Shown piece after piece: positions 2,905 to 63,975 of a DNA stretch of 64,000 nucleotides. Below the pieces are notes generated by a model. The model did not search any database, had not been told where the DNA came from, and saw nothing but the letters and a program-made list of their open reading frames with translations. This stretch comes from Phycisphaerales bacterium (GTDB lineage: Bacteria > Planctomycetota > Phycisphaerae > SM23-33 > FEN-1343). The DNA lies in NCBI GenBank assembly GCA_003171335.1, contig PMYD01000082.1, positions 2,518-66,517 on the forward strand. The letters are read 5' to 3'. Positions within the stretch are counted from its first letter, which is position 1. Each line of letters begins with the position of its first letter. Both the position numbers and the translations under genes were made by a program.

Positions 2905-3000
2905 GAACACAAAGAGCACAAAGACCACAAAGATCACGAAGCAAGAGACAAAGTATTTCTTGCCTTCTTTGTGCCCTTCGTGATCTTTGTGCTCTTTGTG
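2905..3000. repeat. CACAAAG-family (9-bp period) inverted repeat element
   Basis: Left arm GAACACAAAGAGCACAAAGACCACAAAGATCACGAAG with reverse-complement right arm; further copies at ~8806, 16359, 22103, 58477. Confidence 0.85.
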
Positions 3001-3028
3001 ACCTCTTGCGGCTCTGGAGAAAGCAAGC

Positions 3029-6768: not shown

Positions 6769-6922
6769 CGTGGCACGGGCGTCTCGCCCGTGAGTGGCAC
6801 GGCCATCTTGGCCGTGATCCGGCCGTTTCTTGCGGCGTGGCACGGGCGTCTCGCCCGTGATCCGGGCGTTTCTTGCTGCGCGCCACGGGCGAGACGCCCA
6901 TGCCACGTTTTCATACACGTTC
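6769..6922. repeat. REP cluster CACGGGCGAGACGCCCGTG / CACGGCCATCTTGGCCGTG
   Basis: Same hairpins at 32200-32322 and 63256-63392. Confidence 0.85.
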
Positions 6923-8781: not shown

Positions 8782-8805
8782 CAGTTTCTGGCTTTAAACG
8801 AAGAG

Positions 8806-8960
8806 GACACGAAGAGCACAAAGACCACAAAGATCACAAAGGAAACAAAGCGTGAAGAATGCAGAGCCAAAACGAGAATATAAGCTGCTGTTTTCCCCGC
8901 CTTTTACTTTTCCTTCTTCTTCCCTTCGTGTTCTTCGTGATCTTTGTGGTCTTTGTGTTC
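8806..8960. repeat. CACAAAG-family inverted repeat element
   Basis: Arms match the 2905-3000 element. Confidence 0.85.
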
Positions 8961-15432: not shown

Positions 15433-15592
15433 GAAATCCCAAATCCCAAATTCCAAATCCCAAACAAATTCCAAATTCCAAGCTCCAAACTCCTATTTGA
15501 TCAATTTCTTCGAAACGGATCGTGCTCTATTCTTCTTTGGAATTTGGTGCTTGGGATTTGTTTGGAATTTGGGATTTGGGATTTGGGATTTC
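15433..15592. repeat. AAATCCC/AAATTCC heptamer inverted repeat element
   Basis: (AAATYCC)n left arm and (GGRATTT)n right arm; copies at 26382-26664, 33576-33743, 60237-60291. Confidence 0.9.
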
Positions 15593-18222: not shown

Positions 18223-18524
18223 CGGAAGCCCGCAGGGCATAACGATATGCCGAGCTATTGACGTGCCGTGCTTCTTATGATCCGTCCCTGCATTTTCCGG
18301 GAGCCCGCAGGGCGACTGAAAGTAGCCCCTGGCGCTGGCCGACGCGCAGCGCCGGCCGAGCCTGGGGAAACGCGGGACGGATTGATCATCCCGTCTTTTT
18401 CGGGAGCCCGCAGGGCGACTGATAGTAGCCCCTGGCGCTGGCCGACGCGCAGCGCCGGCCGAGCCTGGGGAACGCTAGACGGATTCATCTTCCCCATCTC
18501 TTCCGGGAGCCCGCAGGGCGACTG
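18223..18524. repeat. REP array downstream of tnpA (GGGAGCCCGCAGGGCGACTGA.AGTAGCCCCTGGCGCTGGCCG..CGGCCGAGCCTGGGGAA)
   Basis: Two full ~72-bp copies (18299, 18402) and two partial copies; inverted copy at 19097-19172. Confidence 0.85.
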
Positions 18525-18530
18525 AGCCGC

Positions 18531-18983
18531 TCAACCCCACATCGTCTCGGGATCAAACGGAATGTGGTGCCGTTTCAGGAACGCAATGAATTCCTCTTCA
18601 TACGTCACCTTACGGTGATGCTCCGCCTGGCCGGCAATGTATGATTCCACATCCGGCCGAATGGAATCCGCCACCGTGAACGCGGCGTAACCCTGTTGCC
18701 ACTTGAAACGATCCTTGGGCTTGAGCGTTCGATTCACCCATCCGGTCGTGAGGCTCTTGAGCTTCCCCACCGCCGTCGGAACGCCTATCGGCGGCCTCAA
18801 CGAGATCAGCGCGTGCAGGTGGTTTTCCGTGCCGCCCAGGGCCAGGGCGCAGCCGAGTTCCTTCTTGGCAACGCCGCCGGCATATTCGTACAGGCGGTGC
18901 TGAAAATCCCGCGTAATGAGCGGCCGGCGGTCCTTCGTGCTGAAGATGACGTGATAGAGCAGGTGCGTGAATGTGTGGCTCAT
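18531..18983 (-). mobile_element. tnpA: IS200/IS605-family HUH (Y1) tyrosine transposase, REP-associated
   Basis: YHVIFSTKDR, NHLH (HUH), FKWQQGY, YIAGQAEHH; flanked by inverted REPs; no tnpB. Confidence 0.9.
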
Positions 18984-20887: not shown

Positions 20888-22156
20888 ATGTCATTAGAAT
20901 CGCTGATGTTAAAGCACATTCGCCTGGATGGCGACACGCAGACGCGTGTGAAGATGTCGGACAAGCTGATTGATGAATACGCCCGCCAGATGGCGGAAGG
21001 GGACGACTTTCCGCCCCTGGCGGTCATGTTCGATGGTGTGGACCACTGGCTGTACGACGGTTTTCACCGGTACTACGCCGCCGTGCAGCTTGGCCGCGAG
21101 CGATTGCCGGTCGAGGTGAAGGAGGGCACGCGGGAGGATGCCATCTGGGAGTCGCTGGGGGCAAATAAGACACACGGACTGAGGTTCACCTCAAAGGACA
21201 AGGCCAAGGCGATACGTAAGGCCTTGGAAAATTGGACAGATAGGACGGATGGCTACATCGCCAAGCACATAGGAGTTGACGAGAAGACCGTGAAGAAATA
21301 TCATCTGGAGCGGATTTCACGTCCGGAAATTCCGGACGTGAACCCCCGCCCAGATGCCTCAACTGAGGAATTTCCGCAGTTCGAGTTCGATGGAAGGCCC
21401 TCACGTCCGGGAATTCCGGACGTGAACCGCCGGCCAAATGCCTCAACTGAGGAATTTCCGCAGTTCGCGGTCGATGGAAGGCCTTCACGTCCGGAAATTC
21501 CGGACGTGGACCCCCGCCCAAGTACCTCAACTGAGGAATTTCCGCAGTTGGCGGTCGATGGAAGGCCTTCACGTCCGGAATTTCCGGACGTGACTCACGC
21601 GGAGAAATCCCCAACTGCGGAAATTCCGCAGTTGACCCGGCGTCTTGGGGCTGACGGCAAGTGGTACAAGCCTCGAAACAAACCCATCATCGGCCCGGAT
21701 CGCCGGCCGGCGCCGCCCGAGCCGGGGGCTCTGGCCAAGGAGCCGCCCGAGCGGGACATGCTTGGCCGGCCGTTTGAAGGCCCGCACGCCGAGCGGATGC
21801 GGCAGGTGTTCTCGTTTCAGCCGCGGATTGCCCAGCAGGTGCATCTCTTGGGCAGCCTGGGCGGTTTCATGCGCGACATGGCCGGCGATGGGCACCTAGT
21901 GTACGGGAAGATCGACCTGCCGCGTTTTCACGCTGGGCTCCGCCGGGCCATGAGCGCCCTCATGCGGATCTGCCCGCACATCATCTGCCCGCGCTGCCGC
22001 GGAGCCGGCTGCCAAGTCTGCCGCGGCTGGGGCTGGATTGATCAATGGGGCTGGCTCTCCTACGGCCGGCGGGGGCGAGTTGGTCCAGCTCAAGAAAACG
22101 GCGAACACGAAGACCACGAAGATCACAAAGAGCACAAAGAAAGGCCAAGAGAATGA
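20888..22156 (+). CDS. ParB/Srx N-terminal domain + HTH protein with internal palindromic repeat array and C-terminal CxxCxGxG zinc finger
   Basis: TQTR..IDEYA..FPPL..LYDGFHRYYAA..AN.THG; HTH TDGYIAKHIGVDEKTVKKY; RRLGADGKWY; CPRCRGAGCQVCRGWG. Confidence 0.85.
   Translation: MSLESLMLKHIRLDGDTQTRVKMSDKLIDEYARQMAEGDDFPPLAVMFDGVDHWLYDGFHRYYAAVQLGRERLPVEVKEGTREDAIWESLGANKTHGLRFTSKDKAKAIRKALENWTDRTDGYIAKHIGVDEKTVKKYHLERISRPEIPDVNPRPDASTEEFPQFEFDGRPSRPGIPDVNRRPNASTEEFPQFAVDGRPSRPEIPDVDPRPSTSTEEFPQLAVDGRPSRPEFPDVTHAEKSPTAEIPQLTRRLGADGKWYKPRNKPIIGPDRRPAPPEPGALAKEPPERDMLGRPFEGPHAERMRQVFSFQPRIAQQVHLLGSLGGFMRDMAGDGHLVYGKIDLPRFHAGLRRAMSALMRICPHIICPRCRGAGCQVCRGWGWIDQWGWLSYGRRGRVGPAQENGEHEDHEDHKEHKERPRE
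21316..21634. repeat. Eight ~23-27-bp palindromes at 42-bp spacing (84-bp tandem unit x4) inside the ParB-like gene
   Basis: Alternating CACGTCCGGAAATTCCGGACGTG and CAACTG(A/C)GGAAWTTCCGCAGTT. Confidence 0.95.
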
Positions 22157-22233
22157 GGTTTTTTGGCATTCTCTTATCCCTGCCCTTGTTTTTCTTCCTT
22201 CGTGCCCTTCGTGATCTTTGTGGTCTTTGTGGT
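22103..22233. repeat. CACAAAG-family inverted repeat overlapping the 3' end of the ParB-like gene
   Basis: Left arm encodes EHEDHEDHKEHKE. Confidence 0.85.
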
Positions 22234-22310
22234 TGGCCTTTCTTTGCGGCGGCGGCTGCCATGACGAACAGGCCTTGGGTTTTCGACCCGAATCGTCCAT
22301 GATATTCATC

Positions 22311-25916: not shown

Positions 25917-26558
25917 ATGGAGTCGGACTTTTTCGCCATCCTGCAGTTGCGCCCAGGCCGCTACCAGAGGGACGCAATCGATCGGCAGTACCGGTCGGTG
26001 AAGCGGCAAATCCTGCGCCTCGGCGGCCCGGAGCGCCAGCGGCGGCTGGATGATGCCTTAATCGCCCGGTGCGTGCTGGCCAACAGCGGCCAGCAGGCGG
26101 CGCTGCTGCGCCGGCACATTGTTGCCATCCGCCGCCAGATACCGCGCGGGCCGGCCGCGATTGCGGTGCCCCGGCGCCGGCCAGTCCGACCAGCGATGGC
26201 GCCGCCGATCGGTGCGGCTGTCGGCGACGTTCATGCCCAATTCGCCCAGCGCGTAGCCGGGCAAATGGAGGATGGGCTGCTGCGCTTCACCGCCCGGCGG
26301 AGATTGCTGGAAGCGGCTGGCGAGTTGGGAATCGCGCCCTTTAAGGCGAACTTGATCATTGCCGAAGTCATTCATGAACGGCAAATTCCAAATCCCAAAT
26401 CCCAAATCCCAAACAAATTCCAAGCACCAAATTCCAAAACTCGGAATGAAGAACTCGCGGGTCGGCCGCACGGCGAGCATTACGGCCTGCGCCTCTTGAT
26501 CGCGCTGGTGCTTGCCACGGCCGGTGGCCTCGCGCTGACGGTCTGGTTGGTTCGATAA
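25917..26558 (+). CDS. Hypothetical protein with C-terminal TM and in-frame heptamer-repeat insertion
   Basis: LRFTARRRLL..A.ELGI.PFKANLIIAEV motif, then QIPNPKSQIPNKFQAPNSK, then TM. Confidence 0.65.
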   Translation: MESDFFAILQLRPGRYQRDAIDRQYRSVKRQILRLGGPERQRRLDDALIARCVLANSGQQAALLRRHIVAIRRQIPRGPAAIAVPRRRPVRPAMAPPIGAAVGDVHAQFAQRVAGQMEDGLLRFTARRRLLEAAGELGIAPFKANLIIAEVIHERQIPNPKSQIPNKFQAPNSKTRNEELAGRPHGEHYGLRLLIALVLATAGGLALTVWLVR

Positions 26559-26664
26559 ACGTCCCTTCTGCGGCAAGACCTGGATCTTTCCATGTGCGCG
26601 CTTCCTCGTTTGGTGCTTGGTGCTTGGGATTTGTTTGGGATTTGGAATTTGGGATTTGGGATTT
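26382..26664. repeat. AAATCCC heptamer element: left arm inside the CDS, right arm downstream of it
   Basis: Arms at 26382-26438 and 26609-26664. Confidence 0.85.
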
Positions 26665-32199: not shown

Positions 32200-32322
32200 C
32201 GTAGCACGGGCGTCTCGCCCGTGAGTAGCACGGCCATCTTGGCCGTGTTTTCGGCAGTCTTTCTTCGATTCGCCACGGGCGAGACGCCCGTGGAACTCAT
32301 GGGCGAGACGCCCATGCTACGC
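32200..32322. repeat. REP cluster CACGGGCGAGACGCCCGTG
   Basis: Matches 6769-6922. Confidence 0.85.
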
Positions 32323-33575: not shown

Positions 33576-33743
33576 GGCAAATCCCAAATTCCAAATCCCA
33601 AATCCCAAACAAGCACCAAATCCCAAGCTCCAAACGCTGCGCCGATAGTCCTGCTTGATTCCAGCGGAACGCTCGCGGGCAAAGTTTGGAATTTGGTGCT
33701 TGGAATTTGTTTGGGATTTGGGATTTGGAATTTGGGATTTGCC
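33576..33743. repeat. AAATCCC heptamer inverted repeat element
   Basis: Begins directly after the DUF1570 stop codon. Confidence 0.9.
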
Positions 33744-58476: not shown

Positions 58477-58608
58477 AGACACAAAGATCACAAAGGCCAC
58501 GAAGGTCACAAAGCAAGATCAGGGTAAAGGCAACACTGGCGTCCTTCTTCGTCTTTGCACTATTTGTCTCTCTTTGTGCCCTTTGTGATCTTTGTGGTCT
58601 TTGTGTTC
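58477..58608. repeat. CACAAAG-family inverted repeat between iorA and iorB
   Basis: Arms match 2905-3000. Confidence 0.85.
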
Positions 58609-60236: not shown

Positions 60237-60291
60237 AAATCCCAAATCCCAAATCCCAAATCCCAAACAAATCCCAAGCTCCAAATTCCAA
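60237..60291. repeat. Single arm of the AAATCCC heptamer element
   Basis: (AAATCCC)3 AAAC AAATCCC AAGCTCC AAATTCC. Confidence 0.8.
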
Positions 60292-60300
60292 ACGAAACAA

Positions 60301-63724: not shown

Positions 63725-63975
63725 TCAACTGGTGAAATTCACCAGTTGACTGCCTTCCGGCCGTGCGAGGGGTCGGATTCCGGCCCTTACGCTCCAGCCC
63801 CAACTGAGGAATTTCCTCAGTTGAGGAAAATTCGGGCAGGCGAGGGGTTCGGGTCCAGCCCTTACGCCCAGGCCTCGACTGGTGAATTTCACCAGTTGAG
63901 CACCATCCGGACAGGCGAAAGGTGCAATTCCAGCCCTTACGCTCCGGCCCCAACTGAGGAATTTCCTCAGTTGAA
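63725..63975. repeat. Array of four 23-bp palindromes at 75-bp period (may continue beyond the window)
   Basis: CAACTGGTGAAWTTCACCAGTTG alternating with CAACTGAGGAATTTCCTCAGTTG; centres 63737, 63812, 63887, 63962. Confidence 0.92.

Follow-up and report, generated by a model that had tools for sequence, protein, structure and literature searches.

A gene for a ParB-like protein that carries an in-frame array of palindromes, putative binding sites of its own product

Gene and encoded protein

Within the window (the whole 64,000-nt stretch of DNA analysed here), a forward-strand open reading frame (ORF) at 20888–22156, whose start was placed by alignment to paralogs, encodes a 422-aa ParB-like protein. 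A ParB_N-like domain is followed by a helix-turn-helix (HTH), a linker encoded by the repeat array described below, and a C-terminal helical domain with a zinc motif. The neighbouring genes in the window encode an unknown 457-aa protein and a TauE exporter. No ParA ATPase gene lies beside the gene, either in the window or among its conserved neighbours in other genomes, which are recombination and helicase genes.

The label ParB-like, given to this gene in an earlier reading made from the sequence only (hereafter the sequence-only reading), holds at the level of the superfamily but not below it. The protein matches PHROG 1033 ('ParB-like partition protein', E 1.9e-17), while a Pfam search at E 0.1 returned no family and sequence matches to PDB ParB chains were weak; of its paralogs, C45 passes the ParB_N cut-off (29.1 bits against 26.3) and C168 scores 18.2 bits. 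Foldseek searches with the N-terminal 145 aa of the AF2 model found Noc (7ng0 and 7nfu), ParB (7bnk and 6sdk) and KorB (8qa9) at E 2e-7 to 4e-6 and probability 1.00, with target-normalised TM of about 0.4–0.5 over 137–156 columns, and the modelled N-terminal domain and HTH have the fold of the ParB/Srx superfamily, of the ParB, Noc, KorB and BisD kind. The N-terminal domain proper (aa 1–100, 20888–21187, forward strand; pLDDT >85) contains invariant G58-x-x-R61 and N93/H96/G97 (alignments A2 and A3). The GxxR motif is present and invariant in the family (G58, R61), whereas the Glu of ENxxR is absent from it, N93 being invariant within the stretch A92-N93-K-T-H-G-L-R; in a study of BisD, both motifs are named as nucleotide-pocket motifs, and ENxxR is placed in the CTP pocket of BisD (PMC12409273).

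The HTH (21248–21319, forward strand) comprises helix 121–128 and recognition helix 132–144 according to DSSP of the model. The C-terminal domain (aa 290–396, 21755–22075, forward strand; pLDDT >90) includes the invariant cysteines C362, C367, C370, C375 and C378 (21971–22036, forward strand) and is predicted to form a symmetric dimer, with a homodimer score of 0.85 compared to 0.00 for the best of three controls, at least 97% of contacts in agreement between runs and a partner pLDDT of at least 88. In calibration the mark was reached by 20 of 30 proteins whose solved structure is a pair of one chain and by one of 23 whose solved structure is a single chain, counts that are only rough as the run used our own alignment.

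The palindrome array

Eight palindromes are written in frame into the ORF at 21316–21634 (forward strand; codons 143–249), beginning where the predicted recognition helix ends. TRF called an 84-bp period in 3.8 copies at 21316–21633 (88% matches, score 473), each unit holding one palindrome of type A and one of type B, and the centres lie at 21329, 21371, 21413, 21455, 21497, 21539, 21581 and 21623 in a constant step of 42 bp. The four type A copies, to which like the type B copies no strand is assigned, occupy 21317–21341, 21401–21425, 21485–21509 and 21569–21593, with zero, one, one and zero mismatches respectively in pattern scans; the first is a perfect 13-1-13 palindrome if its flanking T/A is included. 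The type B copies occupy 21360–21382, 21444–21466, 21528–21550 and 21612–21634, with one, one, zero and zero mismatches. The first three of these are hybrids, with A as the seventh base in the left half and C in the right, and the fourth, a perfect 11-1-11 palindrome, lies at the spot occupied by the single palindrome in all paralogs and most homologs. Each of the two patterns is expected 0.00 times by chance (100 shuffles).

The sequence-only reading had described eight phased palindromes of alternating types directly after the HTH, with frame-preserving centres exactly 42 bp apart, perfect first A and last B copies and a centre base that flips between A and T. TRF and the pattern scans agree with this description, and all eight centres, the frame, both perfect copies and the flip were reproduced. 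Its statement that linkers diverge more than arms also holds, as pairwise differences amount to 47/108 in linker 1 (four units) and 6/54 in linker 2 (first three units), compared to 9/150 in the A arms and 10/138 in the B arms. Disorder of the insert, likewise expected in that reading, is predicted in the AF2 model, in which array-encoded residues 150–248 have pLDDT <50; the array would thus encode a disordered linker segment.

As a check against assembly artefact, contigs of four Logan runs (X1, X2, X3 and X6) tile the array with zero differences, although no single contig spans it and one of the four runs may be the source sample; those of X1 cover 21243–21461 and 21435–22100. A search for RNA runs with this sequence returned none, which has no bearing on whether the gene is expressed. 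Contig joints that skip 265 and 60 bases were rejected as signs of copy-number variation, since their sides are only 22–25 letters long and they probably derive from other loci with the same palindromes.

Palindromes in homologous genes

The family to which the gene belongs is large (8,036 cluster representatives with E of at most 1e-30), and its members span phyla and phages with the palindrome in the same codon interval. When each ORF was scanned in full, its best palindrome fell 84–110 aa after the DGxHR motif in 65 of 75 distinct ORFs taken from genome records, and in the same 27-codon interval in 58 of 65 from viral contigs, compared to a chance expectation of 9.7% based on the length of the interval. 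In related genomes, eight of the 11 evaluable homologs have a perfect palindrome at aa 144–154. The gene's own palindrome is the sole copy in genomes G009 and G038, and in all three virus or provirus records tested. Comparison of these genes shows an ancestral state of one gene with one palindrome just past its HTH-coding part.

Symmetry is maintained at this site while the encoded peptide is not. The 74 distinct palindromes at the homologous position (23-mers in which nine or more of the 11 positions pair) encode 71 distinct peptides; on average 10.1 of their positions are paired, whereas permuting the partners gives a mean of 5.4 and, over 500 permutations, never more than 6.0, and at arm positions 3–6 all four Watson-Crick pair types are in use, with 93–100% pairing. 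These data bear on the possibility that the array is a peptide repeat under protein-level selection, its DNA symmetry being incidental, or else an artefact of assembly. The repeat is indeed in frame and encodes the motifs SRPEIPDV and STEEFPQ; however, the retention of symmetry through 71 different peptides and the predicted disorder of the segment argue against selection on the protein, and an artefact is hard to reconcile with copies that are just 88% alike and with the agreement of the contigs from four runs, so that we find this explanation scarcely credible. The outcome that would have spoken for it, conservation of the peptide with non-palindromic codons, is not what the homologs show.

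Covariation of half-site and recognition helix

We compared the half-site bases with the protein alignment using mutual information, contingency tables and a nearest-pair test, and found covariation with residues G122, D131, E132, K133 and T134. The strongest signal links half-site position 5 to residue 132 (z 21.7), where Glu occurs with C in 17 of 17 cases, Asp with C in 8/9, His with G in 24/29 and Gln with A in 8/8. Similarly, Arg at residue 122 is paired with G at position 6 (52 of 55), Lys at residue 133 with G at position 4 (22/22) and Asp at residue 131 with G at position 3 (24/24), the general pairing being G with Arg, Lys or His, C with Glu or Asp, and A with Gln. Columns of the N-terminal domain reached z of at most 4.1 and showed no covariation comparable to the HTH. 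The covariation is drawn from related sequences, and our controls lower phylogenetic inflation without removing it; a nearest-pair test with 41 pairs free of overlap found residue 132 to differ in 27 of the 28 pairs that differ in base and in four of the 13 with the same base, a contrast greater than in all 70 control columns.

As the half-site covaries with the start of the recognition helix and not with the N-terminal domain, these results point to direct reading of the half-site bases by the gene's own product, and they fit a palindromic cognate site read by the HTH. The A sites agree with the protein encoded at 20888–22156 (G122-C, E132-C, K133-G, D131-G, T134-A). The B copies do not fit their own protein under this rule and instead fit sister paralogs with Arg at residue 122. 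The proposal of the sequence-only reading that selection acts on DNA symmetry and not on the peptide thus gains support from the 71 peptides, the kept codon interval, the 93–100% pairing and the covariation with the helix, and the comparative data likewise favour its suggestion of an intragenic operator or parS-like array.

Instead of serving as binding sites in duplex DNA, the palindromes might act as hairpins in mRNA or single-stranded DNA, for example in translation pausing, in RNA processing or as the place where the ParB-type domain nicks. Perfect symmetry reaches arms of 11–17 bases and includes the innermost bases, and the single-strand DNA fold of the array is very strong (-108.9 kcal/mol, z -12.7). 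However, arm covariation is equally well accounted for by a homodimer on symmetric half-sites, and the residue-base pairings are confined to the HTH and are of the kind known from major-groove read-out of duplex DNA (Arg, Lys or His with G, Glu or Asp with C, Gln with A). Extragenic copies in the source genome moreover lie in intergenic regions of every orientation class, 28 divergent ones included. We consider a hairpin function in place of duplex binding very improbable, although symmetry that extends to the innermost bases exceeds the usual need of an HTH dimer and may reflect a hairpin or cruciform role.

Paralogs and dispersed palindromes in the source genome

The gene has ten paralogs in the source genome, each with at least one palindrome at the same spot. 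In 10/10 the palindrome follows the HTH and is centred on codon position 1; the arms are perfect over at least nine bases in eight paralogs and have one mismatch in C37, and the palindrome of C25 is degenerate. Homology between the paralog loci is limited to the gene and about 250 nt upstream. A further ParB_N match, C156, was rejected; it is a ParB-methyltransferase-like fusion with no palindrome.

In total the genome contains 292 palindromes of the array kind, which group into 122 clusters. Of these, 87 lie between genes, 16 within genes and 18 at the edges of contigs, and one overlaps a predicted gene partially, although these assignments come from a rough home-made codon-usage gene caller and could be wrong for arrays at gene ends. 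ParB-like paralogs account for nine of the 16 genic clusters, and the only genic positions away from gene ends are in the ParB-like family. A paralog with the fitting residue bears each of the four B classes of 69, 55, 30 and 27 copies, and likewise the A class of 18; for three further abundant classes (34, 31 and 12 copies) no host paralog was found in the assembly, which is 90.9% complete. Dispersed palindromes often form tandem arrays of alternating classes, with spacings that favour multiples of 3; one extragenic array of four B-class palindromes with a 75-bp period, identified by repeat and pattern scans, lies within the window at 63726–63973 (no strand assigned). The genome-wide family of 292, the ten paralogs with sites and the restriction of the fit to type A had not been noticed in the sequence-only reading.

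The dispersed copies were rejected as gene fragments, as there is no flank conservation beyond about 12 nt from their centres and the linkers of the eight-palindrome array match nothing elsewhere in the genome. No match to canonical parS was found in the genome with up to two mismatches allowed, an uninformative negative. A comparison with the same-genus genome G001 for empty sites was abandoned (66–82% identity, flanks on different contigs).

This distribution resembles that of selfish REP/BIME-like elements, which comprise hundreds of short, mainly extragenic palindromes in tandem arrays of alternating types, with several classes per genome and each class tied to one protein gene. It could be supposed that REP/BIME-like or Rickettsia palindromic element (RPE)-like palindromes have spread through the genome and come by chance to lie in frame in a tolerant linker. 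The 292 mainly extragenic copies are compatible with such spread, Y1 transposase (RAYT-like) genes are present in the genome, with one at 2.4 kb upstream, and RPEs are described as inserting into genes in frame (PMC10969869). However, the palindrome occupies the same codon interval across phyla and phages, including genomes without any other copy, and it covaries with the recognition helix. A link to RAYT was examined and rejected, as the Y1_Tnp genes are not near these palindromes: the eight best RAYT-like genes have none within 3 kb, with the exception of the chance neighbour in the window, and two are flanked by their own, different hairpins. In contrast to REP/RAYT, the partner protein here would be ParB-like and not a Y1 transposase, and the palindrome lies within the gene instead of flanking it. 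Palindromic DNA is translated in frame in RPEs (PMC10969869) and PARCELs (PMC2996958) also, but the elements described here are about 23 bp long and confined to one gene family and position, whereas RPEs are in-frame elements of about 150 bp in unrelated genes with a conserved peptide, and PARCELs encode a conserved 25-residue amphipathic motif where the peptide here is unconserved. We therefore judge selfish spread to be a decidedly improbable source of the array.

Viral relatives and comparison with known systems

In viral contigs the gene is found within a replication-recombination module, in which an SF2 helicase gene follows it in 59–61 of 80 loci; the other module genes at these 80 loci include Sak4 (36), a DUF669 SSB-like protein (35), RusA (36) and exonuclease (27). 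GenBank phages gave only two weak matches, and therefore no studied phage carries the gene.

This setting recalls the origin of phage lambda, whose iterons occupy the middle of gene O and where two additional iterons lengthen the protein by 13 residues (PMC7466680). In both cases an array of imperfect or perfect inverted repeats lies within the gene of its own reader, which is putative here, in a linker part that does not bind DNA, and its copy number varies among relatives and alters protein length (PMC7466680). The gene product could accordingly be a replication initiator that binds the palindromes as iterons, with the array as origin of a replicon derived from a phage, as might be suggested by the viral module and by the uniqueness of the site in three of three virus records. 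Repeated sites do lie inside the coding sequence of the candidate initiator. Against this, the G+C profile around 53 viral-locus palindromes gave no adjoining AT-rich region that could serve for unwinding, the palindrome alone being 7–9% lower in G+C; replication genes lie alongside in the phage relatives but not in the source genome, from which the module genes are absent (tblastn at 1e-4) and where ten solo paralogs and about 290 genome-wide sites are too many for all to be origins. In addition, most members of the family have one site and not four, and the modelled protein folds like ParB, Noc and KorB and unlike known initiators. A lambda O-type origin thus seems an unlikely explanation of the array.

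Further parallels are found among ParB-like proteins. BisD, the ParB-like CTP clamp of ICEclc, has as its loading site an 11-n-11 inverted repeat (bisS) found inside two genes (PMC12409273), and the present system resembles it in the ParB-like N-terminal part and HTH, in the long flexible linker and the dimerising C-terminal domain (both predicted here), as well as in the 11-n-11 geometry and the location of sites in coding sequences (PMC12409273). It differs in that bisS lies in other genes (inrR, ssb) and not in bisD, and in that the family of the 422-aa protein has no ENxxR. The array itself, with eight sites at 42 bp, is similar to sopC of plasmid F, which consists of 12 direct repeats of 43 bp that each contain an inverted repeat bound by SopB, a member of the ParB family (PMC3177203).

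The fold match of the N-terminal 145 aa extends the likeness to Noc, ParB and KorB. The palindromes to which Noc and KorB bind are numerous and dispersed, and in Bacillus subtilis a parS site lies inside spo0J. Unlike SopB, ParB, Noc and KorB, however, the present family has no ParA gene beside any copy seen, a different C-terminal domain with a cysteine motif, its site in the DNA coding for its own linker as a family-wide rule, and, within one genome, ten paralogs that differ in site class.

Proposed role and implications

We propose that the locus is probably an in-frame amplified array of putative cognate binding or loading sites for a ParB/Noc/KorB/BisD-like protein, in its build similar to the lambda O iterons. 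The anatomy, the conserved position, the covariation within the arms and with the recognition helix, and the predictions of disorder and of a dimer come from our data; binding, nucleotide dependence and physiological role are each something that we only infer. According to this model the sites would be written into the DNA that codes for the protein's own disordered linker, and an 84-bp unit with two sites would have been amplified in frame to 3.8 copies. Dimers joined by the C-terminal domain would bind each palindrome via their two recognition helices, and the eight sites, spaced at 42 bp or about four helical turns, would lie on one face of the DNA. A dense complex could thus be nucleated on the gene itself, the array serving for loading or nucleation in the manner of parS, bisS or sopC, and the gene may in this way regulate its own transcription as well. 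In the phage relatives, a single site beside the helicase gene may mark an origin, as the iterons of lambda gene O do.

A possible extension, which we put forward tentatively, is that protein and site form a self-contained module, in which the site is kept in the gene of its reader and both are inherited, duplicated and diversified together. This would have given rise to at least ten orthogonal pairs, from which sites have spread to hundreds of intergenic arrays. If so, the repeats are REP-like but partnered with a DNA clamp of the ParB type in place of a RAYT transposase, they could conceivably act through several channels in organising the chromosome or in controlling genes at long range, and a simple residue-to-base rule would make specificity predictable and re-programmable.

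In the open-access literature we found no description of a ParB-like family with a palindrome in its own gene, or of ParB-like proteins tied to REP-like repeats. What appeared as one odd repeat becomes a rule at the level of a family, in which a palindrome at a fixed place in the gene changes with the recognition helix, and the family is large and common in phage replication modules. It offers a readable recognition code that could be tested with a few proteins and oligonucleotides, and that may allow the cis site to be predicted for thousands of unstudied phage and prophage proteins. A large family of REP-like repeats with no neighbouring transposase may further gain a candidate protein partner, and the genome would offer a natural case of protein and site co-diversifying into orthogonal pairs.

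Palindrome array within the ParB-like gene

Eight phased palindromes had been proposed from sequence alone to lie within the ParB-like ORF (20888-22156), just after its helix-turn-helix (HTH), and pattern scans bear this out: odd palindromes of types A and B, four of each, alternate at 21316-21634 (codons 143-249), with centres exactly 42 bp apart. A tandem-repeat search describes the same stretch as 3.8 copies of an 84-bp unit with 88% matches, and chance matches to either pattern averaged 0.00 over 100 shuffles. Symmetry is perfect in the first type A copy (13-1-13) and in the last type B copy (11-1-11), type B copies 1-3 being hybrids with one position unlike between the two halves. Linkers are indeed more divergent than arms (between-copy difference of 11-44% versus 6-7%). 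The possibility of an assembly artefact, also raised in the sequence-only reading, is opposed by Logan contigs from four runs that match the array without differences, single contigs covering only parts of it and one run possibly being the source sample.

A palindrome at a fixed position in the gene family

Ten paralogs are present in this genome (G000, a 4.2-Mb draft assembly, 90.9% complete), and all ten carry an odd palindrome directly after the HTH, centred on the first base of a codon. Its sequence varies among them, each class also being found extragenically, and the paralog loci are alike only over the gene and ~250 nt upstream. The family was found in 10 of 41 related genomes, with a perfect palindrome at aa 144-154 in 8 of 11 evaluable copies, all different in sequence. 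G001, a genome of the same genus, contains 13 copies of the gene's palindrome; two other relatives (G009 and G038) have it inside the gene only.

The same position is often occupied among 80 loci from species-representative genomes of Planctomycetota, Acidobacteriota, Cyanobacteria, Chloroflexota and Proteobacteria: at 44 of them a perfect palindrome, its arms at least 8 long, lies 86-106 aa past the DGxHR motif, with only 5 such palindromes elsewhere in those ORFs. When each ORF was considered in full, its best palindrome lay between +84 and +110 in 65 of 75 distinct ORFs (9.7% expected from the length of this interval) and in 58 of 65 ORFs from IMG/VR viral contigs. Multi-palindrome arrays are rare within the family, which comprises 8,036 cluster representatives (E 1e-30 or better). 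With 10/11 positions paired as threshold, 119 distinct ORFs hold one palindrome in 72 cases, none in 42, two in 3 and three in 1, and the array-bearing gene has six. The complete planctomycete genome CP087563 has at least nine family copies (L070, L078, L087-L091, L108 and L113), eight of them within 2.69-3.72 Mb, spaced 80-390 kb apart and nearly uniform in orientation; L070 bears three palindromes at 66-bp distance.

Selection on symmetry and covariation with the HTH

The earlier proposal that selection acts on DNA symmetry rather than on the peptide is supported across the family, since 74 distinct 23-mers encode 71 peptides and yet keep their pairing, with a mean of 10.1 paired positions versus 5.4 for permuted partners. 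All four Watson-Crick pairs are used at arm positions 3-6, which are still 93-100% paired, with G, T, C prevailing at positions 6-8. The symmetry includes the innermost bases and arms of up to 17, which leaves some room for a hairpin function of the palindromes, though a very unlikely one.

The decisive point is that half-site bases (those of one arm) covary with HTH residues of the same gene. Half-site position 5 follows residue 132 of the 422-aa protein (z 21.7; Glu with C in 17/17, Asp with C in 8/9, His with G in 24/29, Gln with A in 8/8), position 6 residue 122 (Arg with G in 52/55, Gly with C in 4/5), position 4 residue 133 (Lys with G in 22/22), position 3 residue 131 (Asp with G in 24/24) and position 1 residue 134 (Thr with A in 48/49), and N-terminal-domain columns give z of at most 4.1 against half-site bases. 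These pairings are the classical ones of major-groove read-out. When 41 non-overlapping nearest pairs were compared, residue 132 was unlike in 27 of 28 pairs with unlike bases versus 4 of 13 with the same base, an excess greater than in all 70 control columns. For G122, D131, E132, K133 and T134 the half-site expected from the pairings is exactly that of type A, and the type B half-site suits the paralogs C113 and C45, which have Arg as the first of these residues; the array thus appears to interleave the protein's own type A sites with sites of sister paralogs. Most simply, the palindrome would serve the protein encoded by the same gene as its cognate site, housed in linker-coding DNA. We found no description of such a rule, with the palindrome inside its binder's own gene, in the main texts of the open-access literature.

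Palindromes across the genome

Exact pattern matches in G000 number 123 for type B and 15 for type A, and outside this genome the type B pattern is hardly found, with 3 matches in G001 and 0 in 39 other relatives. Perfect arms of at least 9 surround 209 of 960 GAAWTTC cores, compared to 7 of 2,999 occurrences of seven control cores; over all cores, odd palindromes with such arms outnumber even ones by 484 to 75. At a threshold of 9/11 paired positions there are 292 palindromes in 122 clusters, 56 of which are singletons and the remainder arrays of 2-8. The main classes are set apart by a compensated dinucleotide (AG 69, CG 55, GT 30, GA 27), and the type A class has 18 copies. Flanks of dispersed palindromes show no conservation past ~12 nt from the centre, the 23-nt sites having apparently multiplied without conserved flanks and without a transposase. 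Such genome-wide spread would be accounted for if the palindromes were REP-like elements, which we nevertheless regard as very unlikely, as this does not account for why the palindrome keeps its place in the gene, why some genomes have it just once and why it covaries with the recognition helix.

Rough gene calls (2,922 genes, 81% coding) place 87 of the 122 clusters in intergenic regions (between 42 tandem, 28 divergent and 17 convergent gene pairs), 18 at contig edges, 1 in partial overlap with a gene and 16 within genes, namely 9 in ParB-like paralogs, 2 in the 3' extension of a NuoM-like ORF and 5 as weak singletons. The NuoM-like ORF (G000:C165:44930-47005) stays open across two palindrome arrays, which lengthen its C-terminus by ~215 aa. 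Distances between palindromes of extragenic arrays tend to be multiples of 3 (100 of 170 spacings), and among 49 arrays of three or more palindromes 20 have only such spacings (5.7 expected), which is puzzling because most arrays lie outside predicted genes. Three abundant odd-palindrome classes are without a host ParB-like paralog in the 90.9%-complete assembly: GACTCCGACAwTGTCGGAGTC (34 copies), GACTCCGAAAwTTTCGGAGTC (31 copies) and a 31-nt class with a TGACsGTCA core (12 copies). A palindrome of the second kind is borne by a viral-contig homolog (L119). The window holds a second, extragenic array at 63726-63973, in which four B-class palindromes of the GT and AG classes alternate with a 75-bp period and every linker contains an extra imperfect palindrome.

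Gene context

In other genomes and viral contigs, the ParB-like gene lies within a phage replication-recombination module together with a DUF3799 exonuclease, a Sak4-type annealing protein, a DUF669 SSB-like protein, RusA, a DGQHR protein (PHROG 5931) and an SF2 helicase; at 80 viral loci we counted helicase at 59-61, Sak4 at 36, DUF669 at 35, RusA at 36 and exonuclease at 27. A search of G000 for the module genes found none, and its ten copies are solitary among ordinary genes. That the palindrome acts as an origin in the phage relatives is an alternative to be taken seriously: three records of viruses or proviruses (40-62 kb) each have the site just once, within the gene, and a helicase gene adjoins it. 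No AT-rich region was found beside the palindrome at viral loci. In many phage modules the ParB-like gene is followed by a PHROG 5931 gene (L042:3834-4784 and relatives), whose DGQHR motif places two ParB/Srx-type proteins adjacent, ahead of the helicase.

Encoded protein and reading of the array

A Pfam search returned no matches for the 422-aa product itself; it matches PHROG 1033 ('ParB-like partition protein'), and a paralog passes the Pfam ParB_N cut-off. [quoted passage not shown] The array-encoded insert is predicted to be disordered, as had been expected, with residues 150-248 at pLDDT < 50. When paired with itself, the C-terminal domain is predicted to dimerise symmetrically (score 0.85 versus 0.00 in the best of 3 controls; contacts at least 97% alike between runs; pLDDT of at least 88). 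That score was attained by 20 of 30 solved homodimers versus 1 of 23 solved single chains, counts that are only rough because the alignment was self-made.

On the cognate-site account, a two-site unit was amplified in frame in ORF 20888-22156, which the linker would tolerate because of its predicted disorder. Three known systems offer likenesses. BisD is a ParB-like clamp whose bisS sites are located inside genes (PMC12409273); its geometry is like that of our case, where an 11-1-11 palindrome goes with a long linker and a C-terminal domain, the latter predicted to dimerise. The sopC site of plasmid F consists of 12 repeats of 43 bp (PMC3177203), close to the ~42 bp spacing of our array. Lambda O iterons lie inside the gene of their binder, their copy number altering protein length (PMC7466680), a rule that the array would share given binding by its own product. 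From these likenesses we read the array as a putative nucleation or loading array, and it would likely feed back on its own gene.

Other repeats

A RAYT-like Y1 transposase gene (PF01797) lies at ~18531-18983 on the reverse strand beside a 103-bp tandem repeat (18295-18525). At least 8 strong copies of such genes are present in G000, and two of them (C137 and C42) have their own flanking hairpins, unlike the palindromes of the ParB-like gene. An inverted repeat of short CACAAAGA-like units at ~22093-22253 spans the 3' end of the ParB-like gene and codes for the HEDHEDHKEHKE tail of its protein; related short repeats occur at 2966-3001, 8804-8850 and 58571-58605, and at many places in G001. Composite long inverted repeats, in which runs of CAAATCC-like heptamers stand opposite TTTGGGA-like complement runs tens of bases apart, are found at 15434-15591, 26382-26664, 33578-33741 and 60237-60293. 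Repeats of a further family, whose units resemble GTGGCACGGGCGTCTCGCCCGTGA and form hairpins, were also identified by the tandem-repeat search at 6770-6891 and 32201-32247.
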